UHGV virus genome: UHGV-0213393
Direction: 5' to 3' (one strand)
DNA: 64,000 nucleotides
DNA from: a virus
The position numbers and the translations under genes were made by a program. The notes under the pieces were generated by a model. The model saw nothing but the letters and a program-made list of their open reading frames with translations. It was not told where the DNA came from and did not search any database. Positions 2,992 through 59,009 of the stretch are shown here, piece by piece. Every line of letters starts with the position of its first letter. Position 1 is the stretch's first letter.

Positions 2992-3066
2992 GATGGTGTA
3001 GCTCAGCGGTAGAGCAGTTGGCTGTTAACCAACTGGTCGGTGGTTCGAATCCACCCACCATCGCCA
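2992..3066 (+). tRNA. tRNA-Asn (anticodon GTT)
   Basis: Hand-folded cloverleaf: acceptor gatggtg/caccatc, anticodon loop ctGTTaa, T-arm ggtggttcgaatccacc, 3' CCA encoded. Confidence 0.85.
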
Positions 3067-3071
3067 ATTTA

Positions 3072-3158
3072 GGGGAGTTAGTCCGTAGAGGTAGCGGTGT
3101 AGACTGTAAATCTACTGTCATTGCGACTCGGGTGGTTCGACTCCATCACTCCCCACCA
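3072..3158 (+). tRNA. tRNA-Tyr (anticodon GTA), long variable arm
   Basis: acceptor ggggagt/actcccc, anticodon loop ctGTAaa, extra arm, T-loop ggttcgactcc, CCA encoded; D-arm not fully canonical by eye. Confidence 0.65.
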
Positions 3159-3162
3159 AATT

Positions 3163-3238
3163 GCCGGTTTAGCTCAGTTGGTAGAGCAGTCGCTTTGTAA
3201 GCGAATGGTCAGCGGTTCGATCCCGTTAACCGGCACCA
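3163..3238 (+). tRNA. tRNA-Thr (anticodon TGT)
   Basis: acceptor gccggtt/aaccggc, D-arm gctcagttggtagagc, anticodon loop ttTGTaa, T-loop ggttcgatcc, CCA encoded. Confidence 0.85.
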
Positions 3239-3479
3239 ACACAACAGGTAAGAGCATTTGTAGAGTTCGACTCTCTACCGTGGGCTTTTTCCCGCGATGC
3301 GAGCCATAAATGCTCTTTCCGTTGTGGTGAATGCGCGTTGCTGGCGCGCAAGTCCGCCCTATGGCAACGAGGCGGCGTAGTAAATATCGATGCCTCAGTC
3401 ATCAAGCGCACTGACCGGCCTTATGGGCTATGAAAAAAAGAGGCGCAGTCGGAGATCAGTACCGACCACCACAATCACT

Positions 3480-3566
3480 GGAGAGTAGGGAGCATGGTGC
3501 TCAAGCGGTCTTGAAAACCGTCCCGTCGCGCAAGCGATGATGGTTCGATTCCATTACTCTCCGCCA
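3480..3566 (+). tRNA. tRNA-Ser (anticodon TGA), long variable arm
   Basis: acceptor ggagagt/actctcc, anticodon loop ctTGAaa, long extra arm, T-loop ggttcgattcc, CCA encoded. Confidence 0.65.
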
Positions 3567-3995
3567 TCGCAACGTTAAGAGTATTTGGCTAATTAAGCGA
3601 ATGCCGGAAGCAGAACCGGATCACCAAATGCGTACAGGCGTCATCGCCGCCCAGTCAGCCAAATGCTCTTACCATTGCGGTGAATGCGGCTAAGCGCACG
3701 CGGAACAGTTAAAACAGTAAAGGTGGTCTTTTTACTGGCGTAACGAGAATCCATAAGTGATCCGGCGTTAATTGTTAACTGGTTAACGTCACCGGGAGGC
3801 ACCCGGCACCGCAACCTAACAGCAATGGCGTTTTGTCTTAAAAGGTGGCTGCAAGTGATGGATTTTTGGGCGTTTGCCGATAAAAACCCGGAGTGGACAT
3901 TATTGTTTCTGCTGGTGGTTGCATACGGGGTAGAGCAAGCGGCAAAAGCCTTACGCGGTTCTGGCAAAAAGCGTAAGCGTAATTAACAGTAATCT

Positions 3996-4071
3996 GGCCC
4001 TTTAGCTCAGTGGTTAGAGCGGGCGACTCATAATCGCACGGTCACCGGTTCAAGTCCGGTAGGGGCCACCA
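3996..4071 (+). tRNA. tRNA with CAT anticodon (Met, or Ile if lysidine-modified)
   Basis: acceptor ggccctt/aggggcc, D-arm gctcagtggttagagc, anticodon loop ctCATaa, T-loop ggttcaagtcc, CCA encoded. Confidence 0.8.
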
Positions 4072-4525: not shown

Positions 4526-5101
4526 ATGTTAACGGCGAACGATAACGCGTATTCAGAAGATGATCTCGTTTTGAGTGACTTTATAGGGCGACGAGAATGC
4601 TGGACGCAAAAGCGCGAGGAGCTTTATGCAGCGTTAGTTCGTAAAGGCGTCAACATCGAAACCGCACAGAACGGTGATATGACAGTGGTAAGTGTTGGAC
4701 TGCACGGCGTAAGTGTGTCAGCAATCAATCACGAGCCGTACATTGCGTTATCCGAGTCGATGGTAAGGTTAGTTAAGTTCCTGAAGTACACAGAAGCGAA
4801 TAACGTGCTCATCGCCAAAAAGAACATCCCGTTCTCATCGGCCTTTTACTGGATGATGAAGGGGCTTGATGCCCGGCGAACATCATGGCCTAAAGGGAGC
4901 TATATATCGATGCTCCGTGGCAGTGTTGGTAGCAAAGAAAAGCTCGTCGAATTCCTGCCGGAAGAGGCATTCGATATTGTTGAAGGTTGTGATGTGATGG
5001 TTATGCCTCGCCTGGTAATGATGAATGGGGATTTACAGGCGCAGACAGACTGGTTTGCAACTGGTGTTGATATTATCGCTACTGACTGGGAGGTTTTTTG
5101 A
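4526..5101 (+). CDS. hypothetical protein
   Basis: 191-aa ORF with RBS aaggag; stop overlaps next start (ATGA). Confidence 0.55.
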   Translation: MLTANDNAYSEDDLVLSDFIGRRECWTQKREELYAALVRKGVNIETAQNGDMTVVSVGLHGVSVSAINHEPYIALSESMVRLVKFLKYTEANNVLIAKKNIPFSSAFYWMMKGLDARRTSWPKGSYISMLRGSVGSKEKLVEFLPEEAFDIVEGCDVMVMPRLVMMNGDLQAQTDWFATGVDIIATDWEVF

Positions 5102-5588: not shown

Positions 5589-5981
5589 ATGGAGCAAATC
5601 AGTAGCGCCGAAATAGCGGATATCATGATCAGGGCTGACTGCTATCTGACGGTCACCGAAATCACCAGCCGTGCAAAAGCACAATATCCTCACCTTCATG
5701 TGTCGCGCGTAAACGTAAATAACATCATACGTTTTTTTGTTCGTTCCAGTCGTGCCATTTGCGAAATAGACGACCGCGTATACCCCCGGAAATATTGGTT
5801 ACATGGCCTGAATGGATACCAGTTCAAGGTGCGCGGGCGCACTCCTGAATTCGGTCGGCTGTTGGTGAAAAACACCAACCGAAAGATAGAAGCTCAATTA
5901 CGAAAGGAGCAGCGTCAGTTGGTGGCGATGACTAACCAGCTATGGAACGCCGCTGTGAAAAAACGTGAGGCTTCCCTATGA
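5589..5981 (+). CDS. hypothetical protein
   Basis: 130-aa ORF; overlaps start of downstream terminase small-subunit candidate. Confidence 0.5.
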   Translation: MEQISSAEIADIMIRADCYLTVTEITSRAKAQYPHLHVSRVNVNNIIRFFVRSSRAICEIDDRVYPRKYWLHGLNGYQFKVRGRTPEFGRLLVKNTNRKIEAQLRKEQRQLVAMTNQLWNAAVKKREASL

Positions 5982-7342
5982 CGTTAATTAACTGGGAGGC
6001 GCATCGAGCTAAGTTCCTGGAGTTAAGAGAAGAAACCGGGATCACCATAAAAGAATATTGCGAGCAGCATGACCTCAGCTTTAACACCGCCAGAAAGCAT
6101 CTCAATATGAAAAAAAATGAGGTTAAGGCGAAAGCTAAGGCTGCCGGGAAAAGTACAAAACAGCGCGCAAAAAGCAGCGCCACCGGCTCAAAAAAAGAGC
6201 AAAAAAAGGCTGATAAAAGCACAGAATTTACAAAAACTGACAAATCGTTAGCTGGTGGACAGTTCCGCGCCATGCCGCAAAAACAAAATGCGGATCACAA
6301 AGAAAAACCAAGTAATAACAACAGGATACACAAGGATGTGAAGGGATCATTTTGTGATGAAATGGGAGAAATGATCCCTAAAAGCAGCGAAAAAGCCCAA
6401 CGAAACAAGGGATCATTGCAAATGATCCCTGACTCATCAGCTCAAAGCGCCACTTTGCCTGCCACCAACGTCGCCCGTGAGATGATGAAGAACGGCGCGA
6501 CTGAACATTTACGACTTGCGATACAGATGGCGCAGGAACGAGCAATTCAGTATCAGGCCATCGTTGACCAGGAAGCGGAGCGACTACAGGAAGAGATTGA
6601 CGCCCTCGGCGATACACAGCCAGAGGGGATGCACCCAGGGCAGCGTCTTCTCGGCCTAATAAGCGATGCGGCCTACTACATGAATGACTTTATCAGTAGG
6701 TTGGCAGCCATCTACCAGACCGAGCAGAAGCTACGCCAGGGGGATGAAAAACTTGCGCAGGGCGCGCGTCAGCAGGCATTCAGGGAGGCTGAGGCCAGAG
6801 AAAAACTGGCGATTGCCCGCCTGCAGGCCGAGCAGCGTGGCAAGGAGATTGAGTATCGCATTGGCGCTGACGCACGCGCCGCCAGGGTTATCGCCGCCGC
6901 TATACGTATGCGTGAGCGCGAGGAGCTGGACGATATAGGCGTAGCTGAATATATCGAGCGGCAGGGCGTCAGTGTCCCAGCTATCCTGGCGGCACGAGCG
7001 GCAAAAGCGATCTCACTTCTGGAGCCTCCGGTTTCTGACGTTAACGATGTTGATGATGAGCAACTGGATAAAGAGGCGAAGCAGTTTGCCGAGCAACAAG
7101 CTGGACTCCCACAATGGCTTGCACAACGCCGGGCTGAAGTAGCGAAAATCGTTGATAGGCTTGGGATGGGGGATTACGACCGGAACGGAGAACGTAAAGC
7201 CGGTGAATTTGAGGCCAATGATGAAGACCTGAATATAGACCCTTCCGCCACGGCTGATATCTACGGTGATTATGACGCGGGGGATACCGGTTTTGATGCT
7301 GTAGATGACGAGATTGTGATAGACCAGCCGGAGGATGACTAA
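5978..7342 (+). CDS. putative terminase small subunit (PacA-like)
   Basis: Immediately upstream of and coupled to the ATPase terminase gene; N-terminal HTH-like region, K-rich linker, acidic C-terminus; contains internal GATC cluster. Confidence 0.45.
   Translation: MTLINWEAHRAKFLELREETGITIKEYCEQHDLSFNTARKHLNMKKNEVKAKAKAAGKSTKQRAKSSATGSKKEQKKADKSTEFTKTDKSLAGGQFRAMPQKQNADHKEKPSNNNRIHKDVKGSFCDEMGEMIPKSSEKAQRNKGSLQMIPDSSAQSATLPATNVAREMMKNGATEHLRLAIQMAQERAIQYQAIVDQEAERLQEEIDALGDTQPEGMHPGQRLLGLISDAAYYMNDFISRLAAIYQTEQKLRQGDEKLAQGARQQAFREAEAREKLAIARLQAEQRGKEIEYRIGADARAARVIAAAIRMREREELDDIGVAEYIERQGVSVPAILAARAAKAISLLEPPVSDVNDVDDEQLDKEAKQFAEQQAGLPQWLAQRRAEVAKIVDRLGMGDYDRNGERKAGEFEANDEDLNIDPSATADIYGDYDAGDTGFDAVDDEIVIDQPEDD
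6333..6430. promoter_or_regulatory. candidate pac site (clustered GATC inverted pairs)
   Basis: Four GATC as gggatcatt / aatgatccc pairs at 6345, 6373, 6411 and 6424 inside the small-terminase gene. Confidence 0.45.
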
Positions 7343-8850
7343 TGGCTGGTGGTCGTAAGATTAAGTGCGTCACCAGTGATCCACGTTGGCGCGATATGGT
7401 TATCAGGTATCGATACAACTTTACCCAGGCGGTTGTCGATATTTTTGGGATGTTCCCCTCCCATCAGCAGCAGCAGATCATTCAGTCAGTGCAGGAGACG
7501 GGGAGCAGGACGACCGTTACGTCCGGACACGGAACGGGTAAGTCATCCCTTACCGCGATGTTGCTACTAATTTTTATGATCCTGTTCCCCGACGCCCGCG
7601 TCATTATTGTTGCGAACAAAATAGGCCAGGTAAAAACAGGCGTATTCAAATACGTGAAACAGTTTTGGGCGAATGCTGTTAAGCGCCACGGCTGGTTACA
7701 GACCTATTTTGTCCTGTCTGACACCATGTTTTATGAGCGTTCCCGTAAAGGGATATGGGAAGTGCTCTGTAAAGGTTATCGACTCGGTAACGAAGAGGCA
7801 CTGGCGGGGGAGCACGCGGAGCATTTACTGCTAATCCTTGATGAAGCATCGGGCATATCCGATAAGGCGATTAACGTCATGACGGGGGCGTTAACGCAGA
7901 AAGATAACCGTATGCTCATGCTTTCCCAGCCTACGCGTCCAAGCGGTTACTTTTATGAATCCCACCATTCAAGGGCAAAGGCAGAAGGCAATCCGGAAGG
8001 AGTCTGGACGGCAATAGTCCTTAACTCTGAAGAATCTCCATTCGTTGAACCGAGCTTTATTCGTGAGAAATTGCTGGAGTACGGCGGCAGGGATTCGCTG
8101 GAGTACATGGTTAAGGTGCTGGGCCAGTTCCCGCGTGCAATTAACGGGTATTTGCTTGGTCGTGATGAGTGCGACCGCGCCGCACGGCGTAAAGTGTTGC
8201 TGGAGAAAGATTGGGGCTGGGTAGCGACCGCTGACGTCGGTAATGGTCGCGACAAATCGGTGCTCAATATATGCAAAGTATCCGGTTATCGTGAGAAACG
8301 ACGCGTTGTGAACTTTAAGATACTGGAGATGCCAGGCACTATGGACCCGTTGGCTTTTGCCGACTTTATCTATAACGAATGCACTCCTGATAAATACCCG
8401 AACATCACCATTGCTGTGGATGCTGATGGCTTTGGTTCAGATACGTGTGCGCAGCTTGTCCGCCGTGGTGCTAATCCCGTTCGCATCCGTTGGGGTAAGC
8501 CTATGTTTGCGCTAAGAGACAGAGAACGCTTTGTCAATCAGCGTGCTTACGCCAATATTATGGCAGGGGATGCCATTAAATCAGGGCGTATGCGTATCGA
8601 TAGTGACCCCAAAACCGCAGATCAGGCATCAAAAATCCCGTATATGCTTAACGAAGAAGGGAAGGTAGCGATGATGCGCAAGGAGCACATGCGGCAGAAG
8701 TTAAACATCAAGTCGCCGGACAGATGGGATACCTACTGCTTCACTATGCTGGTGGATTACGTGCCTGCTAATGAAGACATTGGCGCAGAACTCGCAACAT
8801 TCCGCGATCAGGTGTTGGCAGAAGTGGATATTCCTGATATTGACATTTAA
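7342..8850 (+). CDS. terminase large subunit (PacB-like)
   Basis: P-loop GHGTGKSS and Walker B LLILDEASG in N-terminal half; about 500 aa; coupled to upstream small-subunit candidate. Confidence 0.7.
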   Translation: MAGGRKIKCVTSDPRWRDMVIRYRYNFTQAVVDIFGMFPSHQQQQIIQSVQETGSRTTVTSGHGTGKSSLTAMLLLIFMILFPDARVIIVANKIGQVKTGVFKYVKQFWANAVKRHGWLQTYFVLSDTMFYERSRKGIWEVLCKGYRLGNEEALAGEHAEHLLLILDEASGISDKAINVMTGALTQKDNRMLMLSQPTRPSGYFYESHHSRAKAEGNPEGVWTAIVLNSEESPFVEPSFIREKLLEYGGRDSLEYMVKVLGQFPRAINGYLLGRDECDRAARRKVLLEKDWGWVATADVGNGRDKSVLNICKVSGYREKRRVVNFKILEMPGTMDPLAFADFIYNECTPDKYPNITIAVDADGFGSDTCAQLVRRGANPVRIRWGKPMFALRDRERFVNQRAYANIMAGDAIKSGRMRIDSDPKTADQASKIPYMLNEEGKVAMMRKEHMRQKLNIKSPDRWDTYCFTMLVDYVPANEDIGAELATFRDQVLAEVDIPDIDI

Positions 8851-8887: not shown

Positions 8888-9925
8888 TTACCAGAGTTTT
8901 GCCGCGTACATCGTTTGTGTGAATGTGTACCCATAGCGTTCTTCAACGCTTTTACCGTATTTTTTCCTGGCTTCAGTAAGGCGGATGCCTGTCAGGTCAT
9001 CGCCGGAGGCAATCATAACTTCCAGTAGTTCCAGGTCCATTTTATCCAGCCTTGCCATTGCATCTTTAGCCTCTTGAATTTTCCGGCTAACGATCTGGTG
9101 TATGGCTGGATCGGCTTCGGCCAGCATTTTATCTGATTTGTTTTTTAAACTCTGATTGCGGATATCAATGTTTCTCAGGATATATGACTTCACGACATAG
9201 CTTGGCTGCTGCTTTTCCAGATCACGAACCCGATAAAGGTCAAATTCGCCGAGAAGTCCGCACGGAAGCGGTTTAATGCCAGTGTAAATGGTAAGGGTAC
9301 GGCGCTCACCAACGTTGTTAACAACGGGAATCTCTGTGTTTGCTTTTCTTGCAAAGATCAGCGCACCGTGCGCACCCACTCGGAAGCGTGAAAGTCCATT
9401 GTTGCCCTCGATATTGGTGGTAATCACCACATCGGTATAACCTTCTTTTCTTGCGCGGTATACCTCGCCCTCACGTTCAGCGGCGAAGAATCTGCGTTCT
9501 TCTTCAAGCGCACCGACAACCTGTGAAAATATCCTGTTTTTCATGCTTTTCTTTATAGTTTTATCGTATTTTTTCAGCAGGTCTTCGCGCGTAAATGTTC
9601 TCGTTGTGGTTGCGCTTTGCATAACGATATGCGTACTCTGATTAGTATCCTCAACAATGAATGGGATCGGTAAATAAACCGACTCAACAATGTTTGAGGC
9701 TTTGTCATCATCCTTGCGACACAGATCAACAAAGGCTTTCCATTCGGCTATGCATTTTTCAGCTTCTTCTAATACAGCCGGATCATGTGTTAATGCAACA
9801 TGGCGAAATTCCTCGCCAACATAACTGGTATCATGGAAAACAGAGTTTGCGACCACCAGCTCTTTCCACCGTTCAGCGGTTTGCAGGAACCGTTTGTACT
9901 CATTCTCGATCGACTTCTTACTCAT
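8888..9925 (-). CDS. hypothetical protein; candidate C1-type repressor by synteny only
   Basis: Start chosen at MSKKSIENEY with RBS AGGA; sits between terminase and the lox/cre module, where P1 carries c1; operator-like motif in its own promoter. Confidence 0.5.
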   Translation of the reverse strand: MSKKSIENEYKRFLQTAERWKELVVANSVFHDTSYVGEEFRHVALTHDPAVLEEAEKCIAEWKAFVDLCRKDDDKASNIVESVYLPIPFIVEDTNQSTHIVMQSATTTRTFTREDLLKKYDKTIKKSMKNRIFSQVVGALEEERRFFAAEREGEVYRARKEGYTDVVITTNIEGNNGLSRFRVGAHGALIFARKANTEIPVVNNVGERRTLTIYTGIKPLPCGLLGEFDLYRVRDLEKQQPSYVVKSYILRNIDIRNQSLKNKSDKMLAEADPAIHQIVSRKIQEAKDAMARLDKMDLELLEVMIASGDDLTGIRLTEARKKYGKSVEERYGYTFTQTMYAAKLW

Positions 9926-9958: not shown

Positions 9959-10121
9959 GTCCTGTGACAAATTTATGCTGAATAACAAGGTGAGTAAAGG
10001 ATAAAACCGCTTTTTTTTGATTGTTCCTATTAGAAAATGTAACCAGGAACAGCTACCGCATGGCTGACGGATTTGCGAAGTGATCTGGTCGGTGTTTTTT
10101 TTGGGAAAAAAGTCCTGATTT

Positions 10122-10155
10122 CTAACTTTAAATAATTGGCATTATTTAAAGTTAG
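10122..10155. other. lox-like recombination site (13-bp inverted arms, 8-bp asymmetric spacer)
   Basis: ctaactttaaata-attggcat-tatttaaagttag; arms resemble loxP ATAACTTCGTATA; about 150 bp upstream of the Cre-like gene. Confidence 0.65.
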
Positions 10156-10306
10156 GCTATAATCTCCAGTAAACAGGTAGTATTGACAAGGATGAAAAAT
10201 CATGCCTCGAATCAAAGGCTTGAATTTTGAAAATTAACTTATAACTACCCTGTCAGTTTTCTATTTTTCACGTAGCGTTATCTGTATATAGAGGTTTAAT
10301 AGTTTC

Positions 10307-11335
10307 ATGGGTGAACTAGTTATCTCCGGCGGTTCTGGTGGTTTTCTGCGCGATATTGGCACCGAATACCAAGAAGCTGCAAAAAACTTTATGCAGTTCA
10401 TGAACGACCAGGGAGCTTATGCCCCAAATACGCTTCGAGATCTCCGTCTGGTGTTTCATTCCTGGGCGCGGTGGTGTAACTCGCGCCAGCGCCCCTGGTT
10501 CCCGATTACGCCGGAAATGGCCCGCGAGTATCTTCTCCAGTTGCATGAGGCCGATCTGGCTTCGACCACCATTGATAAGCACTATGCCATGCTTAACATG
10601 CTGCTTTCGCAATGTGGCCTCCCGCCGCTCTCGGACGATAAAAGTGTGTCTCTGGCCATGCGGCGCATCCGGCGCGAAGCGGCAACGGAAAAAGGCGAGC
10701 GAACAGGCCAGGCTATACCGTTGCGGTGGGATGATCTGAAATTGCTCGACGTATTGCTGTCCCGTTCCGAGCGGCTGGTGGACCTGCGCAATCGGGCGTT
10801 TCTCTTCGTGGCATACAATACCCTGATGCGTATGTCAGAAATCTCGCGCATCCGCGTCGGAGATCTGGACCAAACAGGTGACACTGTAACGCTGCATATT
10901 TCACACACGAAGACCATCACGACCGCCGCCGGACTTGATAAGGTGCTTTCTCGTTGCACTACCGCCGTACTGAACGACTGGCTGGAGGTGTCCGGACTTC
11001 GTCAACATCCGGACGCGGTGCTATTCCCGCCAATACACCGCAGTAATAAGGCCAGAATCACGACAACTCCCCTTACTGCACCTGCAATGGAGAAAATATT
11101 CAGCGATGCCTGGGGGTTGCTGAACAAACGAGATGCCACGCCGAACAAGGGAAGATACCGGACGTGGACAGGCCATAGTGCGCGTGTTGGTGCGGCAATT
11201 GATATGGCTGAGAAACAGGTGTCAATGGTCGAGATCATGCAGGAAGGCACATGGAAAAAGCCCGAAACACTTATGCGATATTTGCGCCGTAGCGGGGCAT
11301 CCGTTGGTGCAAATAGTCGCCTGATGGATTCCTGA
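10307..11335 (+). CDS. cre: Cre-like tyrosine site-specific recombinase
   Basis: Blocks SVSLAMRRIRRE, RNRAFLFVAYNTLMRMSEISRIRVGDL and WTGHSARVGAAIDMAEK...MQEGTW match Cre as recalled; catalytic Tyr in LMRYLRR. Confidence 0.9.
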   Translation: MGELVISGGSGGFLRDIGTEYQEAAKNFMQFMNDQGAYAPNTLRDLRLVFHSWARWCNSRQRPWFPITPEMAREYLLQLHEADLASTTIDKHYAMLNMLLSQCGLPPLSDDKSVSLAMRRIRREAATEKGERTGQAIPLRWDDLKLLDVLLSRSERLVDLRNRAFLFVAYNTLMRMSEISRIRVGDLDQTGDTVTLHISHTKTITTAAGLDKVLSRCTTAVLNDWLEVSGLRQHPDAVLFPPIHRSNKARITTTPLTAPAMEKIFSDAWGLLNKRDATPNKGRYRTWTGHSARVGAAIDMAEKQVSMVEIMQEGTWKKPETLMRYLRRSGASVGANSRLMDS

Positions 11336-11752: not shown

Positions 11753-12237
11753 AAACTTACTACCCATCCCTGAACTGCTATCCAACCACTAATCCTGAGC
11801 TGTCAGGGAAACTTCTGTCCCTCCTGGCTGATAGTCCTGATGAATGGCATAAGCCTGGTGATATCAACACACAGTTCCCTGAGTACGGGTGTATCCGCAC
11901 CCGAAATGAGCTGAAGAACCTCATTGCTCACGGTTTTGTCCGTCACCGTAGCGGGAAAGGCTATCAGTTGGCTATCCCACAAGGAGAGGCAAGAGAACTC
12001 TTTGGCTATCGAGAAAGCCAGACGCAAGCGCGGGTGATCGCAGAAATTATCCGTAATGGCAGCGTCTATGCCCGCAAATTCTGGCTGTCTGGCGGTGGCG
12101 ATGCATCACAGTTCTTGCGTGCTGTGCGATCGCTGGAGGAACAAGGTGTAATCGAGAATACCTGCGTCTCCGTTCCGACCGCTCCGCATATCAAACGCCG
12201 GATTTATACATTTACCCGGAGAGCTAAAAAGCAATGA
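11749..12237 (+). CDS. hypothetical protein
   Basis: 162-aa ORF, coupled to neighbours. Confidence 0.5.
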   Translation: MKTYYPSLNCYPTTNPELSGKLLSLLADSPDEWHKPGDINTQFPEYGCIRTRNELKNLIAHGFVRHRSGKGYQLAIPQGEARELFGYRESQTQARVIAEIIRNGSVYARKFWLSGGGDASQFLRAVRSLEEQGVIENTCVSVPTAPHIKRRIYTFTRRAKKQ

Positions 12238-12728
12238 TTAACGTGAAAGTGAAACGCCTTCATCCGGCGGCAAAACTCCCCGTTTACGCCACCGCCGGAT
12301 CGGCGGCGATGGATTTTGTTGCTGTTGAAATAACGCCTGGTATCGATAGCAATGGCGCTATTTCCTCAAGCTGGTGGGTGCATACCGGCCTCGCTATGGC
12401 GATCCCTCCTGGCTGGTGTCTGAAACTTTATCCTCGTTCCGGATTGGGCTGCAAAAAGCATACGCGCCTGGCTAACTGCGTAGGAATTATCGACGCCGAT
12501 TATCGCGGTGAAATCATGGCAAAACTGATTACAGATCCTGGTGGTGAAGGTGTTTGCCTCAAGCCTGGAATGGCGGTCATGCAAGGCATTTTTGAGCGTG
12601 TTGAACCGGTATCGCTGGTAGAAGTTGATGAACTCGATGAAACAGAGCGAGGTGCTGGTGGCTTTGGTAGCACATCGGAAGACCGCATTGAAATCAAGCG
12701 TACACCGCTTCAGTACGAAAAGTTTTAA
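12234..12728 (+). CDS. dut: dUTP diphosphatase (dUTPase)
   Basis: Motifs AGSAAMD, PRSGLG, GIIDADYRGE and RGAGGFGSTS correspond to the conserved dUTPase motifs. Confidence 0.9.
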   Translation: MINVKVKRLHPAAKLPVYATAGSAAMDFVAVEITPGIDSNGAISSSWWVHTGLAMAIPPGWCLKLYPRSGLGCKKHTRLANCVGIIDADYRGEIMAKLITDPGGEGVCLKPGMAVMQGIFERVEPVSLVEVDELDETERGAGGFGSTSEDRIEIKRTPLQYEKF

Positions 12729-15608: not shown

Positions 15609-16502
15609 CTAGTTGTCATTGCCCCCTACCAGCGGCAATAAAGCCCTGGCCATCTTATGAACCAATAGTGCATCAATAATGCCAAGCGTATGCCCCGGGT
15701 TAATGTTTAATGCCGCCTCAAGGTGACACCTTTCCAGGCCACTTTTCTCGGCTTGTTTATGATGATCTGGCGTAATAACGTCGCCCAAAACACGGCTAAT
15801 TCTTTCTCGTAATTGCTGGGTGCCAGCACACTTGATAGCTGTATCGTGGAGACGGTTAACCAGTTCGCGGTAAACATGCGGCTTAATTCGTATACGTTCG
15901 CCGGGGACGCCATTTCCTGGCGCTTGCTCCGAACTATCCAGATAGTTGCCAGCCTCGTAAGCTACCCGCAACCAGTGCATGAATGTTTCCGCAGACACAC
16001 AACCGCAGTCCACATCGATTTTCCCGCGTTGCAGTTCCAGCCATTGCTCAAAATCTAACTTGTAAGCCTTACTTTCAAGTTCATCACCATTGAACTCGAC
16101 TTTCTGAGACGCTATGCGAGCTGCTTCATACTGTTCACGAGTGACAACCGATGTGAACGCACTGCGATCAAAGTCACTGATATCGCAAATAATGCCATCA
16201 AATGAATAATTCTTTGATGGTTGGTAATTTTTGTAGCGCGTATCAAAACGAACCGTAGCCCAACTACAACCTGCCAGCGGAATGGATAGATAGCAAAAAT
16301 CTTTTCCATCAGGCCATCCAGCCCCCTTAGATAATTCCTTCACTAAAAAGTCAATCAGTGTCATTCCGTTACCATCCTTGCAAGGCGCTAACGCTATTTT
16401 GGCAAGCGCCAATACTTCATCTGCCGTATATCCAGCACCGTGACCATACATTTCAATACGGGAAATAATCTCTGATATACGCTCTTTAGTGATTCTGGTC
16501 AT
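15609..16502 (-). CDS. hypothetical protein sharing a YRELVN...QLRER module with the 26169..26780 protein
   Basis: 297-aa ORF; internal segment KPHVYRELVNRLHDTAIKCAGTQQLRERI parallels APHIYRELVNALRDIAAVYHGTEQLRERL. Confidence 0.55.
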   Translation of the reverse strand: MTRITKERISEIISRIEMYGHGAGYTADEVLALAKIALAPCKDGNGMTLIDFLVKELSKGAGWPDGKDFCYLSIPLAGCSWATVRFDTRYKNYQPSKNYSFDGIICDISDFDRSAFTSVVTREQYEAARIASQKVEFNGDELESKAYKLDFEQWLELQRGKIDVDCGCVSAETFMHWLRVAYEAGNYLDSSEQAPGNGVPGERIRIKPHVYRELVNRLHDTAIKCAGTQQLRERISRVLGDVITPDHHKQAEKSGLERCHLEAALNINPGHTLGIIDALLVHKMARALLPLVGGNDN

Positions 16503-16708
16503 AGCTGTATTTCCTTACATGATTCGCCTTTACGACACACGGCTACACGGTTATCTCGTACATTAACCACGGTCACCGTTCCGTCATCGCATTGAGTGAC
16601 TATTACAAGATTCTCTGATTCAGTTACACAGTGCTGCTGTTCTCCAGCCATTGCAGCCGGAGGAGCAAATAGCGCCAGAACAAATGCCAACCTTAAAAAA
16701 TGCTTCAT
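16499..16708 (-). CDS. small secreted protein
   Basis: 69-aa ORF with signal-peptide-like N-terminus ending AMA and cysteines in the mature part. Confidence 0.5.
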   Translation of the reverse strand: MKHFLRLAFVLALFAPPAAMAGEQQHCVTESENLVIVTQCDDGTVTVVNVRDNRVAVCRKGESCKEIQL

Positions 16709-16770
16709 TTGGCCTTATCCGTTATCAAAATTGGAATATCCGTTATCACGAGCGTGATATCCGTTATGAA
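16709..16770. promoter_or_regulatory. direct repeats plus palindrome, candidate operator
   Basis: Three copies of tatccgttat and palindrome tatcacg-ag-cgtgata upstream of the 69-aa ORF. Confidence 0.4.
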
Positions 16771-16787
16771 GGGGGTAATAAAATTAC

Positions 16788-16964
16788 TTAGTAATACCCT
16801 CCTCCAGACTGAACGCCAGCGATAACCCAGGCCGCAAGAAGCGTAAAGCCACTCCCAGCTCCACATTCCATCGTTCCCCATTCAACACCACCAGCCAGCA
16901 AAACAAATGAACCGCAAAGGCATACAAACAAAAAAGTAATCCAAAATTTCTTTCTGTTTTTCAT
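16788..16964 (-). CDS. small glycine-rich hydrophobic peptide (58 aa), absent from ORF track
   Basis: Hand translation MKNRKKFWITFLFVCLCGSF...GGGYY; start overlaps upstream stop (TAATG). Confidence 0.4.
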   Translation of the reverse strand: MKNRKKFWITFLFVCLCGSFVLLAGGVEWGTMECGAGSGFTLLAAWVIAGVQSGGGYY

Positions 16965-17263
16965 TATGGTTGACTCCAGTTATCTTCAATAACAATACTT
17001 AACCTCTGAAGCCATTCTGCTAATTTCAGCATGGCTTCTCTTTCGCTTAAACCACGCGGGAAATCATCAAGTGCAATTGTTGGCTTGAAGTTCCCAAAAT
17101 TATCCATTTCAACGGTCAGATTTTGCTCCAGCACGGTATTCCTTACGCGGCTATTGTGCCGAAGCAAATATACTGAACGTGATTTATTGTTTTTGTGGTC
17201 GAACGTATATTCGGTAAGTATCATCTGGCTTCCGCCATAATTATTACCGCGCCACATAATCAC
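16964..17263 (-). CDS. hypothetical protein
   Basis: 99-aa ORF coupled to downstream small peptide. Confidence 0.5.
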   Translation of the reverse strand: MIMWRGNNYGGSQMILTEYTFDHKNNKSRSVYLLRHNSRVRNTVLEQNLTVEMDNFGNFKPTIALDDFPRGLSEREAMLKLAEWLQRLSIVIEDNWSQP

Positions 17264-17269
17264 TCCGTG

Positions 17270-17671
17270 TTAATAAGAAAAGTAGACCGTTGCGACTCTG
17301 TTATATTGATCGAACGAAATAGCATTTACTTCATAGCTGGTGGGTATCTTTTCGCCAAGAATGTAACCAGGCCATGATTTCCACGGAATTTCTGCTCGTT
17401 CGTCATGCCACACTGCGCAACCAAGAGAACCGACCGTCTCTCCATGCCGTTTTCCGCAAGTAACAAAGCCTATATTTGGCTTATCTTGCGTGACTGCTAC
17501 AGTGGTGGTATTTGCGGATGCATTGATTGCAGTGCGTTGCTCCTGCTCGCTTGCGGCTGAGGCACTAATTGCTGCCGTTGTTGCGGCGGTTGCAACAATA
17601 ACCGATGCATGTGATAAATGGCAGGCAGATAACATTGCCAGAAAAATAATAGTTCTCCGAAATTTAGCCAT
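17270..17671 (-). CDS. secreted hypothetical protein
   Basis: Start chosen at MAKFRRTIIFLAMLSACHLSHA (signal-peptide-like); Thr/Ala-rich linker then Cys-containing domain. Confidence 0.5.
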   Translation of the reverse strand: MAKFRRTIIFLAMLSACHLSHASVIVATAATTAAISASAASEQEQRTAINASANTTTVAVTQDKPNIGFVTCGKRHGETVGSLGCAVWHDERAEIPWKSWPGYILGEKIPTSYEVNAISFDQYNRVATVYFSY

Positions 17672-17847
17672 TGATTTAACCTTTATTGCGAACATATTTA
17701 GCTGTGTGTTGCCGATGTGCGGAGATTTTCTTATATCAATTCCACGCGCTCTGCTAACGAGCAATCCAAATAATCTTCCGGATGCTTGTCGGTGTTATTA
17801 ATGATGCGAATCCTCAAATCTTTTCACCTTTGAGGATAAGTTGCAGG

Positions 17848-18903
17848 TTAGCCACGGTTAACCTCCTGCGGCGGTTCCGGTAGCCGCATCCAGTCGGTTA
17901 CATTACGACTCTGTGTTTCGAAAAATTCATCACCATTGCGGACAATATCGAAAAACTCTCCGTCTCGATATTGCGCATAAAGAACGAATGCGCCATCACA
18001 TAAAATAATTACGTGCTGACCATCATCTGGCATTCGCTCACTACAGCTTATCCAACCATCCGGAGTTACCGGATAGTTGCCAGCCAGTCTACGCAAAACA
18101 GCCTTAACAGCCTCAATACGGTCATCATCGCAACTTTCCAGCGTATCTATGCGATCGAGCATGATGATGGCGTTATCAATATCAGGATTGCCGGTCCACT
18201 CATTACCGCGATTGGATTCGGCAGCCTGGTTGCCGTGTACTGTTTGATTCTCGGCTTTACCCAGTCTGTCGTCGCTGCATGAATGCCCTTCCAGCCAGGC
18301 CAATGCTTGTCGCATGAAATACGCAATATGTTTGCCGTGGTAATCGTCTTCATCGATGTGAAAAGCGATACTGCGGATGTATTCAATTGCGTTTTCAATG
18401 GCCTCCGGCGTTATCGGCGCTGACATATTTTGATTTTGGAGTGCCAAGACGCGGCTGGCATCCTCAACATCTTTAACTGCATCTGCGCAGTAGTTATAGC
18501 GATTGCACTCCACTAACTTCTGCTTGAGATTTTCAATTGCTTGCGCGACATCAGCCTGTATTACCGGCACAGGCGGAGCGGCGTACAAAGCAATCAAACT
18601 GCCAATTGTTCGCTCTTTCGCATCATCCAGACATGGGTAGGCCGGGGTAGATACAATTGCATTATCTCTAAGGTCGTCAGCCATTACCCATGCCATCGGT
18701 TCTGCTTCCAGCGATGCCAGCACAATTCGTGCCAGCTCACGCACAACTTCAGGGGGCGCGTAACGGTCATTCAGGTCATCCCACAGACGTAGCATGTTAT
18801 CGCTACCAAGGTGAACATCCTCGTTAGTTCCGGCAAGCGCACTAATAACCTCATCGGCAGCTTCAATAATTTTCTTGGCCTGTTCTCTGGTAATACTGGT
18901 CAT
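17848..18903 (-). CDS. hypothetical protein, C-terminal phage-type small domain
   Basis: 351-aa ORF; C-terminal DGWISCSERMPDDGQHVII... resembles a recurrent phage domain (DUF551-like, from memory). Confidence 0.5.
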   Translation of the reverse strand: MTSITREQAKKIIEAADEVISALAGTNEDVHLGSDNMLRLWDDLNDRYAPPEVVRELARIVLASLEAEPMAWVMADDLRDNAIVSTPAYPCLDDAKERTIGSLIALYAAPPVPVIQADVAQAIENLKQKLVECNRYNYCADAVKDVEDASRVLALQNQNMSAPITPEAIENAIEYIRSIAFHIDEDDYHGKHIAYFMRQALAWLEGHSCSDDRLGKAENQTVHGNQAAESNRGNEWTGNPDIDNAIIMLDRIDTLESCDDDRIEAVKAVLRRLAGNYPVTPDGWISCSERMPDDGQHVIILCDGAFVLYAQYRDGEFFDIVRNGDEFFETQSRNVTDWMRLPEPPQEVNRG

Positions 18904-28126: not shown

Positions 28127-28232
28127 GAAAACACACAGTTGCGCCCTGGCATTATCGTGGGGTATATTTCTACGGCACCTTAGAAAAACGGGTGCCGGGA
28201 TTGGAACCCCGGATAATGTCAAAGGCGACACA

Positions 28233-28255
28233 GACGCCGAACGCGTCTTTTTTTG
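28233..28255 (+). terminator. rho-independent terminator
   Basis: gacgc-cgaac-gcgtc followed by ttttttt. Confidence 0.7.
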
Positions 28256-28439
28256 TGTCATGCCATCGCACAGCCATACTTAGCGTTTAGCTCAGAGATC
28301 AATGGTAGTGCTGGCTGGGCTGCCGAAAGGCAGGCCGGTTCCCTTTGACGCCGGTAGTTCCAACCCAGTCAGTGCTACCGCCATTGAGATTGGAACCTCA
28401 CGCGGTAGCTCCTTAACTTAGTCAAAGGAGGCTGCCAAT

Positions 28440-30275: not shown

Positions 30276-30581
30276 ATGCTCTATGCGGTTCCTCAGCAAG
30301 CTTCTGATTCTTTGAAGTTGATCAAGACTGTACTTCAGCTTATAGCATCTCAACAAGAAGTGTCACAGCAGTTAAAGTTACGGGTTTATGAGGTGATCAG
30401 AGAAGCCTCAAACTTAAGTGTAGATAAAGGTGATCAACTACAGATTCCCTCTCACAGAGAGTCCATCTCGCTCGCGGTAGAAATACGCCATACTAAGGCG
30501 CTAGCCAAGGTGCTAACCAAAGTAACTAGCGAAGATATGTTAGAACCCGTAATGGCCCGGAATGTATTAGAGTACATTTAA
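30276..30581 (+). CDS. hypothetical protein, first gene of AT-rich three-gene operon
   Basis: 101-aa ORF with RBS aaggagggg; stop overlaps next start. Confidence 0.55.
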   Translation: MLYAVPQQASDSLKLIKTVLQLIASQQEVSQQLKLRVYEVIREASNLSVDKGDQLQIPSHRESISLAVEIRHTKALAKVLTKVTSEDMLEPVMARNVLEYI

Positions 30582-31666
30582 TGCTTGCATTTACACAACT
30601 TACATTAGTTCGAAATAAGCTAAGGGAGATTTCAGAATCTCCCTATTTTTCTAAAGACATGCATGAATATCTCGCTGTTCTACAAGAAGCAGCAGATAAG
30701 CTATATGAAAACCATGAGAAGGTTGCCGATGAAATAATTGCTGATTGTACTTTTTTTATCACCGATGCAGTTAATTTTTTCACTGGCAGTACTACAAAGA
30801 AAATTCCCTACGAGATTGTTTATTGCTTAAATGATGCCTGTAAAAAATGGATAAGTGAAAAAACACTTATTACAACGGCTCTATCGCCAGATATGAATGG
30901 GTTTTATTTTAAGTCTGTAAGTAAGAATTTCTACACTTTACTTAATGAAATTTTACATGTTAAATGCGATATCGAATTAATTCAGATTTCATTACCTGAA
31001 ATGTACCGAAGACGACCATTGTGCTCAACACCTTTATATCACGAGTTGGGCCACTTTGTTGATATTAGCAAAGGTATTTCTGAGCTTGCCAATCTAAACT
31101 TTCGTTCTATTAATCAAGGTACGCTTCCTGTGCCACATAAAGGTATTGAGTGGTCTAAATTACCTGATGTTATTTGGCTGAATCACTGTAGGGAGTATTT
31201 TGCAGATCTTTTCAGTGCGCAATTTGTAGGGGAAAGCGGTGTGGATTTCTTATACAAATTAGCTGGTTCTCATCCTGCAAGCGAAACTCACCCATCAACA
31301 GAAAACAGGGTTAAAGTTGTAAGCGACTTTTTGAACAAAGTGGAAAATCCAGTTATTGGCATGTTCAATGCTGTGATATCAGCCTTACATAAGGGTGGGC
31401 AAATTATTTCTCCTTGTTTGACATTGCCGACACCTTTGCTTGATGTGAAATCAGCTTTTGATAATGTGCGTCCTTTTGTTATTCGCGACCACAATGAAAT
31501 GCATGCTTTTATTAACAGCAGCTGGCAGTACTTATGCTCTGAATGGGAAAAACCTACGGGTATATGGTCTGGGTTGTCAAAAGAAGCCATAGAAAAAACT
31601 ATAAATGATTTGGTTGAAAAATCGATTCGAAACGTAATGATTCTTGAAAAATGGAATGCACAATGA
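30581..31666 (+). CDS. HExxH-motif protein, possible zinc metallopeptidase
   Basis: 361-aa ORF with PLYHELGHFVD motif; AT-rich; coupled on both sides. Confidence 0.55.
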   Translation: MLAFTQLTLVRNKLREISESPYFSKDMHEYLAVLQEAADKLYENHEKVADEIIADCTFFITDAVNFFTGSTTKKIPYEIVYCLNDACKKWISEKTLITTALSPDMNGFYFKSVSKNFYTLLNEILHVKCDIELIQISLPEMYRRRPLCSTPLYHELGHFVDISKGISELANLNFRSINQGTLPVPHKGIEWSKLPDVIWLNHCREYFADLFSAQFVGESGVDFLYKLAGSHPASETHPSTENRVKVVSDFLNKVENPVIGMFNAVISALHKGGQIISPCLTLPTPLLDVKSAFDNVRPFVIRDHNEMHAFINSSWQYLCSEWEKPTGIWSGLSKEAIEKTINDLVEKSIRNVMILEKWNAQ

Positions 31667-32280
31667 ATCTCCTAAGCAAAGCTGAATTACTGCAATATTA
31701 TGAATCAGAAGAACCTGAATCGTTGTTCATTGAACCTCTTCTAAATAAAAACCAAATTGGGAACTTCACCATAGACCTTAGACTTGGTTACGATTTTTTA
31801 GTGTCTATTATGACAAGGAAGCCGTCAATAGAGTTAATTCCCTCTAAAAACAATGATACTCATCAACCAATCAGAACATTTTTCCAGGAAACAAGGAGAG
31901 ATCTTGGGGATAGATTCATTGTTTACCCGAATCAAGTGGTACTGGCAACAACATTAGAATATGTTTGTTTGCCACCAGATTGCTACGCTGATGTATTGTC
32001 CAGAAGCAGCTATACAAGGCTTGGTCTTTCATTAAATACCATGATACAACCAGGGTACAGAGGCTGTATATCTTTAGAGTTATTTAATCATGGGAATAGC
32101 CCTGTGGAACTTATTGTTGGATCTCGCATATGTCAAATTCGTATATTCAAGAATGAAACTGTCGGTGAATACATAAGTCATGAGTCTCACAGGAAATATT
32201 TCGGAAATGTGAGGCCAACCGTCTCAGCAGCAGAAAGTGATAATGAATTAAATATGCTGGAAAAGATCCGACAAAAATGA
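31651..32280 (+). CDS. dCTP deaminase-family protein (dUTPase-fold)
   Basis: IDLRLGYDF, SRSSYTRLGL and IQPGYRGCISLELFNHG align with the E. coli Dcd catalytic Ser/Arg/Glu motifs; alternative start 31663 overlaps upstream stop. Confidence 0.7.
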   Translation: MECTMNLLSKAELLQYYESEEPESLFIEPLLNKNQIGNFTIDLRLGYDFLVSIMTRKPSIELIPSKNNDTHQPIRTFFQETRRDLGDRFIVYPNQVVLATTLEYVCLPPDCYADVLSRSSYTRLGLSLNTMIQPGYRGCISLELFNHGNSPVELIVGSRICQIRIFKNETVGEYISHESHRKYFGNVRPTVSAAESDNELNMLEKIRQK

Positions 32281-56711: not shown

Positions 56712-56942
56712 ATGTTGACTATAGTCGAAATGGCTTACAACTAATGTTGACTGTACTCGATACCGATCACAAAACATTGACTACACACGACAAGAAATGA
56801 GGAAAGATTGACTATAAGCGACAAATACTCAATGAAATAGCTGGTTTATCCATTGATCATGTGAAAAAGTTAATAACTAAATCCGCCAGCATCAATGTTT
56901 GTCGCGTATAGTCAACGCTTGGAATCGCACACAGTCAATGTT
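56712..56942. repeat. iteron array downstream of repA (incA-like)
   Basis: About six 19-bp repeats related to ATCGCACATAGTCAACATT in both orientations. Confidence 0.7.
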
Positions 56943-57825
56943 ATGGATTTCGTTTATGGATCTGGAAACCTATTTTCCGACCATTCTTTATCTCTGAAAA
57001 TTTAAGATATTCAACAGCTTCCAAGTCTTTCATGGCTTTACGAATCACACTGTTCTGAACGCTAACCGATGATTTGAGGTTCAATCTGGCGCGAAGGCGC
57101 TCAATACTCACTGGCGCAGGGTTTGAAGGTAACGCTTCGAAAAACGTATAAAGCACCTTGGCTGTCTCTTTCCTGCCAAGTTTATCGAGCATTTTGAGCT
57201 TCAATATTCGCTTATAGTCAACGTAATACAACTCAGACAACTGCTTCTGCGGTTGGATTCTTATAATGTCATTTTCAGTATCAAGTTCACTAAATGCCAA
57301 TAAATTCATCTGGATATAACGAACATGTTCTTTGCTGGTGGGCAAGTTGAACTTCAGCAACGTCTGCTGAATACGCGTTAGAGAGTCGCCAATGCTCTTG
57401 CGAAAAGCCTTGGACAGCCGCTTCCTTGGATAACCGCAACGATCCACAAATTCAGAGAATGTCAGGGTGATCACACCATCATTATCTGGTTTATAGTCAA
57501 ACAATGCAGATGTAATGCCTATCCACACCTTAAAATCAGTATCCATATCCAGCCGTGGCCCATGAATCTCAATACCCTGATACCCTTCCTGCTCTACAAT
57601 CTTCAGGCTGGACAGTTCTTCTGTCGCATCAGTGGAGTTAGTTAAACCGGCGTTCTTGCGACGTAAAGCAACACTGGTAGATTTCAATGTGGGAACAAAC
57701 ACCCCAAGCCGCAACAAAGCTATCGGCTGAATAGTGCTATTATTGTTAGGCTTTAAGCTGTGGATTTCTCCGGTATTCCCTGATATTTCCTCAACGTTCA
57801 GAAAGCCTTTTTTGTCATCTACCAT
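56941..57825 (-). CDS. repA: RepA iteron-binding replication initiator (P1 RepA family)
   Basis: IQPIALLRLGVFVP and GPRLDMDTDFKVWIGI match P1 RepA as recalled; flanked by iterons on both sides. Confidence 0.9.
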   Translation of the reverse strand: MVDDKKGFLNVEEISGNTGEIHSLKPNNNSTIQPIALLRLGVFVPTLKSTSVALRRKNAGLTNSTDATEELSSLKIVEQEGYQGIEIHGPRLDMDTDFKVWIGITSALFDYKPDNDGVITLTFSEFVDRCGYPRKRLSKAFRKSIGDSLTRIQQTLLKFNLPTSKEHVRYIQMNLLAFSELDTENDIIRIQPQKQLSELYYVDYKRILKLKMLDKLGRKETAKVLYTFFEALPSNPAPVSIERLRARLNLKSSVSVQNSVIRKAMKDLEAVEYLKFSEIKNGRKIGFQIHKRNP

Positions 57826-57874
57826 CCTGTTATTTCCTTGATTGACGGGGCTTTATAGCCAAATGAAAGATACT

Positions 57875-57883
57875 TATCCACAG
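57875..57883. promoter_or_regulatory. DnaA box
   Basis: TTATCCACA adjacent to the upstream iterons. Confidence 0.6.
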
Positions 57884-57904
57884 CCGTCTGAGGGCTGAGA
57901 GAAT

Positions 57905-58009
57905 TATCGCATACAGTCAATGTTTATATCGCATATAGTCAACATTAAATCGCGTACAGTCAACATTAAATCGCACATAGTCAACATTAAATCGCACATA
58001 GTCAATGTT
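57905..58009. repeat. five direct 19-bp iterons upstream of repA (origin/incC-like)
   Basis: atcgcatacagtcaatgtt, atcgcatatagtcaacatt, atcgcgtacagtcaacatt, atcgcacatagtcaacatt, atcgcacatagtcaatgtt at 21-23 bp spacing. Confidence 0.85.
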
Positions 58010-58044
58010 GATCTCCATTTAGGCCAGTGATGGCGCGGCTCGCA

Positions 58045-58125
58045 GCGATCCGGGATCTTCTTTGGATCTTACTGGTTCTCTTTGGGATCTATTTATTGGA
58101 TCTACCCTGTGGATAAATAGGTTAA
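58045..58125. promoter_or_regulatory. GATC cluster with second DnaA box, origin-associated
   Basis: Five GATC within about 70 bp then ctgtggataaa. Confidence 0.6.
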
Positions 58126-59009
58126 AGTCAAAATCACACACTCCCTATCCTCCAGCCAAACGAGTACCGACTTTTCTGGAGGAATCCTTGAACATTCCCA
58201 AATTCCCATTACCTTCACAGCCTGAAATAGAAATTCAGTTTCATGCACCTACTGTGAAAGATGCCCTGAAATATTCAGACATCAATCCGGCAGAAGACGA
58301 GGCAACCACAACAGAATACCTCAACGCCATGCAAGATGGCGAAATTAACGACAGCTCAAACTGGACAGTTCAGGATCGCAGAACCGCGCTATGGTGGATC
58401 TTTGTCAATTCCAGACCAGATGCCGTAATGACTTACTCATACGAGTGTGGTCACTGTGGAAACGTTCATCACGCAGATATTAACCTTTCAGACCTTGCCG
58501 AAACGGTAGAAATCCTGACTGTCCCGCCGTTTATTAAAACTATGGTCCCTATAAACGGAGTACCAACCGAGTGGACGCTTAAACCACTAACAGGGAAAGG
58601 CGCTGAATTGCTTGAACGTATGCGCGCCACTTTGCCTGATATGAAAACTCCAGAGTACAGTGCTGAGGTTGCTCGTCTCCGCATAGCTGAGTTGGCCTTG
58701 TGTACATCTCTGAACGACGATCCAGAAGACTTCACACAAGCTGCAAACAGACGATTCGATATCATTGAAAACATGGCACTGGAAACCGAGTTTACCCCTC
58801 TGGTAGCTCGCATTCAGCTCATGCAGAAAGACCTTCGCCACGGCTTAAAAATGGCTATTGAACGAGGCACAAGCCGCCTGATCCTACCGCCACAACGCTG
58901 CAAAAACGCTAAGGAGGGTGCAGACGTGACTACCACGCTGTACGCCCCATTTCTCAATAGAGAGTTTATCCCATCAATTAGATCTGAATGGATGGCTAAC
59001 CATTATTAA
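58062..59009 (+). CDS. hypothetical protein (5' end overlaps origin GATC cluster; true start probably downstream)
   Basis: 315-aa ORF; contains CGHCGNVHH motif. Confidence 0.45.
   Translation: MDLTGSLWDLFIGSTLWINRLKSKSHTPYPPAKRVPTFLEESLNIPKFPLPSQPEIEIQFHAPTVKDALKYSDINPAEDEATTTEYLNAMQDGEINDSSNWTVQDRRTALWWIFVNSRPDAVMTYSYECGHCGNVHHADINLSDLAETVEILTVPPFIKTMVPINGVPTEWTLKPLTGKGAELLERMRATLPDMKTPEYSAEVARLRIAELALCTSLNDDPEDFTQAANRRFDIIENMALETEFTPLVARIQLMQKDLRHGLKMAIERGTSRLILPPQRCKNAKEGADVTTTLYAPFLNREFIPSIRSEWMANHY

Follow-up and report, generated by a model that had tools for sequence, protein, structure and literature searches.

A natural allele of dre with an identical rox site in the sequence of a D6-like phage-plasmid

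Identification of the recombination module

The tyrosine recombinase gene and the palindrome upstream of it in the viral genome sequence UHGV-0213393, of which a stretch of 64,000 nucleotides was analyzed (hereafter the window), almost certainly constitute the Dre/rox site-specific recombination system of a D6-like, P1-family phage-plasmid, a system that is already known. When the window was compared with phage records using megablast, only Escherichia phage D6 matched (AY753669 and MF356679/NC_050154), with 86% nucleotide identity, and the D6 features under the match were annotated as "dre: tyrosine recombinase" and "region of crossover (rox) site for Dre recombinase." Positions 10123–10154 of the window (TAACTTTAAATAATTGGCATTATTTAAAGTTA) were identical in 32 of 32 bases to positions 4909–4940 of AY753669, which are annotated as the misc_recomb feature rox. 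The window protein and D6 Dre were of equal length and were aligned with no gaps, and 321 of the 342 residues were identical (94%). This high identity, the same length, and conserved synteny, with c1 on one side and orf2/orf3/dut on the other, indicate that the window protein is the ortholog of Dre. The dre gene of the window is therefore a natural 94% allele that is accompanied by an identical rox site.

The protein sequence was also found in public databases. It was identical to RefSeq WP_072770514.1, from the Escherichia marmotae plasmid pRHBSTW-00605_3, and the identical protein was present in IMG/VR contigs. The Dre/rox system of Escherichia (Salmonella) phage D6 reportedly goes back to Sauer and McDermott (2004) and is said to have been the standard partner to Cre/loxP since 2004. 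The primary papers on D6 are reportedly those of Sauer and McDermott (2004) and of Gilcrease and Casjens (2018), and the facts on D6 used here rest on secondary citations and the GenBank annotation. As a discovery, the module holds nothing new, with Dre/rox known since 2004 and the exact protein already deposited in RefSeq.

Structure and uniqueness of the site

The 34-nt string CTAACTTTAAATAATTGGCATTATTTAAAGTTAG at 10122–10155 was a perfect inverted repeat. A repeat finder resolved it into two 15-nt arms (10122–10136 and 10141–10155), which were 100% complementary and separated by 4 nt (15-4-15), and it reported no other inverted repeat between 9900 and 10400. A perfect 34-bp site upstream of the recombinase, which had been claimed in the earlier note, was thus confirmed, and it was found to be unique: the string occurred as a single copy in the 64-kb window even when up to three mismatches were allowed, and it appeared in none of 100 dinucleotide-preserving shuffles of the window.

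The palindrome, to which no strand is assigned, encloses the 32-bp rox site at 10123–10154. According to the arm definition in the literature (PMC4777119), the left arm of 14 bp (TAACTTTAAATAAT; 10123–10136, plus strand) is the binding site of a Dre monomer. It is followed by the 4-bp core TGGC (10137–10140, plus strand), whose asymmetry gives the site its direction (PMC4777119), and by the right arm of 14 bp (10141–10154, minus strand), which was recognized in a half-site search as the inverted left arm. The Dre target has been described as a 14-4-14 site of 32 bp (PMC4777119; PMC12331466), and these 32 bp are the experimentally defined minimal target of recombination (PMC4777119). The division into 13-8-13 that had been suggested earlier is a possible reading, but the perfect symmetry extends further (15-4-15) and the literature gives 14-4-14. 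The accompanying suggestion that the site is like loxP in plan and different from it in arms and spacer agrees with our comparison, in which the site matched rox and not loxP.

The site has the form of a recombination target, with two inverted arms, a short asymmetric core, an adjoining recombinase gene, and no further half-sites in the window. A second rox or pseudo-rox site, which would permit inversion or deletion, was considered and rejected, as searches of the window for the full site (up to three mismatches) and for additional half-sites (up to two mismatches) retrieved none.

The recombinase

The dre ortholog (10307–11335, plus strand, stop codon included) was an intact open reading frame starting with ATG and encoding a Cre-family tyrosine recombinase of 342 amino acids, and rox was located upstream, 152 bp from the start codon. 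The protein matched the Pfam family Phage_integrase (PF00589; E value of 1e-16, above the gathering score) and contained the N-terminal SAM-like domain PF02899. In a phmmer search, it matched the Cre chains of Cre–loxP structures in the PDB with an E value of 7e-72, and residues 22–341 of the query were aligned with residues 21–340 of Cre, which corresponds to a full-length, two-domain likeness. A PDB sequence search with the translation of 10307–11332 matched only Cre and Cre-derived Tre chains, and the PDB of 2026 apparently contains neither Dre nor a Dre–rox complex. The earlier note had described a recombinase that shares the catalytic blocks of Cre and is clearly diverged from it, and this description holds: the protein was 41% identical to Cre, and all the catalytic residues (R175, K202, H290, R293, W316, and Y325) were kept, corresponding to R173, K201, H289, R292, W315, and Y324 of Cre. 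These catalytic positions are the same as those given for Dre (PMC4777119).

Membership in the Pfam family "Phage integrase" would also accord with an integrase inserting the element at a chromosomal attachment site, but this is barely conceivable here, given that the target is a simple symmetric 32-bp site immediately adjacent to the gene, an arrangement also seen in Cre/loxP, that the close relatives reside on circular plasmids of approximately 90 kb (193 records), and that the window aligns collinearly with D6, a phage with a circular public record that the literature treats as a plasmid prophage.

Considered as a Dre ortholog, the window protein differs from the D6 enzyme by 21 substitutions, which are located at the positions corresponding to Cre residues 2, 5, 9, 15, 18, 25, 29, 57, 58, 61, 62, 67, 75, 80, 101, 216, 226, 232, 270, 328, and 330. 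None of the 21 substitutions was at a catalytic residue, and none was at K43, R259, or G263, the positions that experimentally separate the recognition of loxP from that of rox/pox (PMC4957104). At the nucleotide level, 136 of the 1026 nucleotides differed between the two dre genes, 108 of them at third codon positions. The codon differences comprised 107 synonymous and 21 non-synonymous changes, which argues for purifying selection on dre.

The clustering of the substitutions in the N-terminal domain (residues 2–102) could be taken as a sign that the window encodes a paralog of Dre that has diverged in function, with a changed or relaxed specificity and, as such, a new orthogonal tool; specificities in the Cre family can overlap or shift, as exemplified by Panto and Dre, which act on each other's sites (PMC4957104). 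We consider this very unlikely, as the adjoining site is rox in 32 of 32 bases, the substitutions spare the catalytic positions and those discriminating rox from loxP, and relatives with either type of protein have the same rox. Dre of D6 recombines rox (PMC4777119; PMC4957104), and we infer from the sequence that the 94% variant, as an allele of Dre, would also be active on it.

The element and its gene neighborhood

Judged from its sequence, the window is a D6-like, P1-family phage-plasmid. This assignment is based on collinearity with D6, gene order, the presence of a C4 antisense RNA, and relatives that are circular plasmids of approximately 90 kb. In a BLASTN comparison with the complete D6 genome (MF356679), the window was collinear in the reverse orientation, with 47.8 of 64 kb aligned at 69–96% identity, and the alignment wrapped through the coordinate origin of D6, which is located centrally in rox; the public D6 record is circular. 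The gene order lpa-pacA-pacB-c1-rox-dre-orf-orf-dut was as in the immC region of D6. The pacA gene for the small terminase subunit, which contains pac in P1, was placed at 5978–7342 (plus strand) by an offset of −2001 from the annotation of the 99.7%-identical plasmid and by the D6 gene order. It is followed by pacB for the large terminase subunit (7342–8850, plus strand; open reading frame and D6 annotation) and by a c1-type prophage repressor gene reading away from dre (8888–9925, minus strand), which corresponds to c1 of D6 and is annotated as "phage repressor protein" in NZ_CP056699. The dut gene for dUTPase (12234–12728, plus strand; open reading frame with D6 and plasmid annotation) lies after two small open reading frames downstream of dre, as in D6.

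The best match was the 94-kb circular E. marmotae plasmid pRHBSTW-00605_3, with 99.7% identity over the region. The module was found on 193 plasmid records of approximately 90 kb, mostly from Escherichia, Salmonella, and Shigella. The presence of pacA, pacB, c1, phd/doc, dut, and the C4 antisense RNA places the window among the D6-like members of the P1 family. Its gene order and collinearity also bear out the P1-like setting that had been proposed for the element. D6-like phage-plasmids have been described (PMC6799933), and D6 is treated as a plasmid prophage in the literature.

Other parts of the window were annotated in the same analysis. A tRNA cluster at 2992–4071 comprised five genes (Asn-GTT, Tyr-GTA, Thr-TGT, Ser-TGA, and Met-CAT), compared with three (Ser, Thr, and Asn) annotated for D6. 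Rfam matches to the Hfq-binding RNA isrK (28175–28253) and to the C4 antisense RNA (28298–28385) identify 28175–28385 as the immI control region of the P1 type that precedes icd/ant-like genes. An insert with no counterpart in D6 was observed at 30276–32280 and contained three genes encoding proteins of 101, 361, and 209 amino acids. The 361-residue protein had an HELGH motif and a weak match to Peptidase_M48 below the threshold, and the 209-residue protein was dCTP-deaminase-like (PF22769, E value of 1e-30). A comparison of the proteins of this insert with PADLOC gave no convincing match; the insert might represent cargo, or else a module for defence or counter-defence. In the BLASTN comparison, 15955–18053, 56717–58130, and 59204–60674 were likewise unmatched in D6, and the open reading frames in 15609–18903 included a DUF551 protein and unannotated proteins.

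Promoter overlap and mosaic joint at rox

A putative sigma-70-like promoter directed toward dre (10136–10163, plus strand), with 11 of 12 consensus matches, overlaps the site. Its −35 element TTGGCA (10136–10141) consists of the core together with the arm base adjoining it on either side, and a perfect −10 element TATAAT (10158–10163) is located 3 bp past rox, giving a spacer of 16 nt. The TATAAT element and its spacing were kept in the relatives of the Dre clade down to 69% amino acid identity. The overlap was rejected as a trait of the whole family, as it was found in none of 48 distinct site contexts from Pantoea and Rahnella; at most, it characterizes the Dre clade.

With this promoter of 11 matches, the rox core serving as its −35 element, and a TATAAT 3 bp after the site that is conserved in the Dre clade, the palindrome might be mainly transcriptional, functioning between the divergently oriented c1 and dre as an operator, promoter, or terminator, with recombination as a secondary function. 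Such a primary role is highly improbable. The same 32 bp are the defined minimal target of recombination (PMC4777119), the promoter layout was missing in all 48 Pantoea/Rahnella contexts that keep the inverted-repeat site, and the palindrome was rejected as a terminator because nothing resembling one was detected there in the scan. Any regulation would add to recombination and not replace it.

For a rox site that is primarily a recombination target, an additional regulatory function can be tentatively proposed, although we regard it as rather doubtful. rox might also be the operator of the dre promoter, in which case occupation of the right arm by Dre would repress synthesis of the recombinase; core variants would then alter both crossover compatibility and promoter strength, and the allele with 21 substitutions might differ in activity or toxicity from the laboratory enzyme. 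A search of the available literature on rox and autoregulation retrieved nothing relevant.

The two flanks of the site differed in their conservation. The left flank of rox, over approximately 100–120 bp (10020–10121 of the window compared with the loci L001 and L076–L111), occurred in at least four unrelated versions, and the right flank was conserved. When the types of left and right flank were cross-tabulated, all four combinations were observed among close relatives. A mosaic joint at rox would be expected if rox or its vicinity were a recombination joint between co-resident elements.

Conservation and natural variants of the site

rox was unchanged between the window and D6, while the 152-bp stretch from rox to the start codon contained 28 differences and the left flank was unalignable. 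The chance of 32 unchanged bases at a per-site identity of 86% is approximately 0.008. An unchanged site amid a diverged right flank and an unalignable left flank points to constraint on rox. In all 35 IMG/VR relatives for which the upstream region was available, with 55–100% amino acid identity, a rox site was found 151–153 bp before the start codon, and the canonical rox was invariant across at least two lineages of Dre protein that are 6% apart. An absent or non-conserved site in related elements had been named in the earlier note as the observation that would speak against the module; the site was present in every close relative examined.

Natural variants of rox were observed in the loci L081, L084, L088, L093, L095, L099–L101, L104–L106, L108, L110, and L111 (at approximately 1317–1349 in each). 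The substitution A9G in the left arm (TAACTTTAGATAAT) was found in 10 loci of the IMG/VR relatives. The core was changed to GGGG in L093, to TAGC in L108, and to TGGAG in L105, a change that also affects a single base in the neighboring right arm. In the relatives with 55–56% identity to the window recombinase by tblastn (L110 and L111), both arms contained TAACTTTATATAA, a symmetric change by which the palindrome was kept. The natural variants could be heterospecific sites.

In species-representative genomes, the relatives were proteins of Pantoea, Erwinia, Rahnella, and Mixta with approximately 45% identity. A rox/pox-like site of the form 13-6-13 was found in 51 of 74 of these relatives, 158–368 bp before the position where the match begins, which agrees with the published Panto/pox system (PMC4957104). 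In many of the Pantoea/Erwinia relatives (L002–L075), the site was directly followed by a conserved GGATCC, which holds the Dam site GATC, or by GGACA.

Proposed mechanism and role

By the proposed mechanism, one Dre monomer would bind each 14-bp arm, and two occupied rox sites would synapse as a tetramer. Tyr325 would cut on both sides of the central crossover region, forming 3′-phosphotyrosine links, and strands would be exchanged via a Holliday junction without cofactors, the asymmetry of TGGC setting the direction. Recombination by Dre needs no accessory proteins or cofactors, and mutagenesis has suggested that the crossover region extends past the 4-bp core to the equivalents of positions 2 and 7 of the loxP spacer (PMC4777119).

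In the phage cycle, rox present at both ends of terminally redundant virion DNA would allow the DNA to be circularized after injection, as by Cre/loxP in P1. In the plasmid prophage, dimers would be resolved to monomers before partition, so that a low-copy plasmid would be segregated faithfully. The role of Cre/loxP in cyclization and dimer resolution in P1 reportedly comes from the work of Sternberg and Austin. The location of rox approximately 3–4 kb from the packaging genes pacA and pacB fits circularization. By analogy with P1, the circularization of injected DNA together with the resolution of plasmid dimers is likely to be the role of the module. The earlier note had assigned the module this role; the kind of module is supported by our results, and the role is carried over from P1.

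Significance

Through this module, the window is recognizable as a phage-plasmid of the D6 type, and rox provides the conventional origin of its map. It had also been suggested that a distinct site would be useful as an orthogonal recombination tool. This value has already been realized by Dre/rox, which has not been seen to cross-react with Cre/loxP (PMC12331466; PMC4957104) and which is combined with it as a matter of routine in the engineering of mouse, zebrafish, CHO-cell, and bacterial genomes (PMC4777119; PMC4957104; PMC12331466). The natural variants in the arms and core of rox and the 94% allele of Dre are candidates for tool developers.

Comparison with known systems

The module resembles Cre/loxP of P1 in the fold family, the two domains, the catalytic residues, and the full-length alignment to Cre structures, in the target plan of an asymmetric core with an inverted arm on each side, and in its setting within a P1-type phage-plasmid, next to c1 and the pac genes; the two systems presumably also share mechanism and biological role. 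It is unlike Cre/loxP in that the recombinases share 41% identity and that loxP is a 13-8-13 site of 34 bp with other arm and core sequences, whereas rox is a 14-4-14 site of 32 bp. Cross-recombination between the two systems has not been observed (PMC12331466).

Panto/pox of Pantoea sp. aB belongs to the same family, and the arm of pox (TAACTTTATATAA) is approximately one base apart from that of rox (TAACTTTAAATAA). However, the relatives of Panto/pox in Pantoea, Erwinia, and Rahnella are approximately 45% identical to the window protein and have other cores. They also lack the promoter overlapping the site, and for many the location is not a P1-like phage-plasmid but a long contig or a very large plasmid.

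Dre/rox of D6 has the same 32-bp site, 342 amino acids, catalytic residues, and 152-bp distance from rox to the start codon as the module of the window, and the same neighbors, namely c1 upstream and two small open reading frames and dut downstream. It differs from the window in 21 amino acid substitutions and in 13% of the nucleotides of the gene, and the approximately 120 bp to the left of the window rox are unrelated to D6. The base pair just outside rox is A/G in D6, whereas it is C/G in the window, by which the perfect symmetry grows to 15-4-15. With approximately 75% of the window alignable to D6 at 69–96% identity, the element of the window represents a different D6-like lineage.
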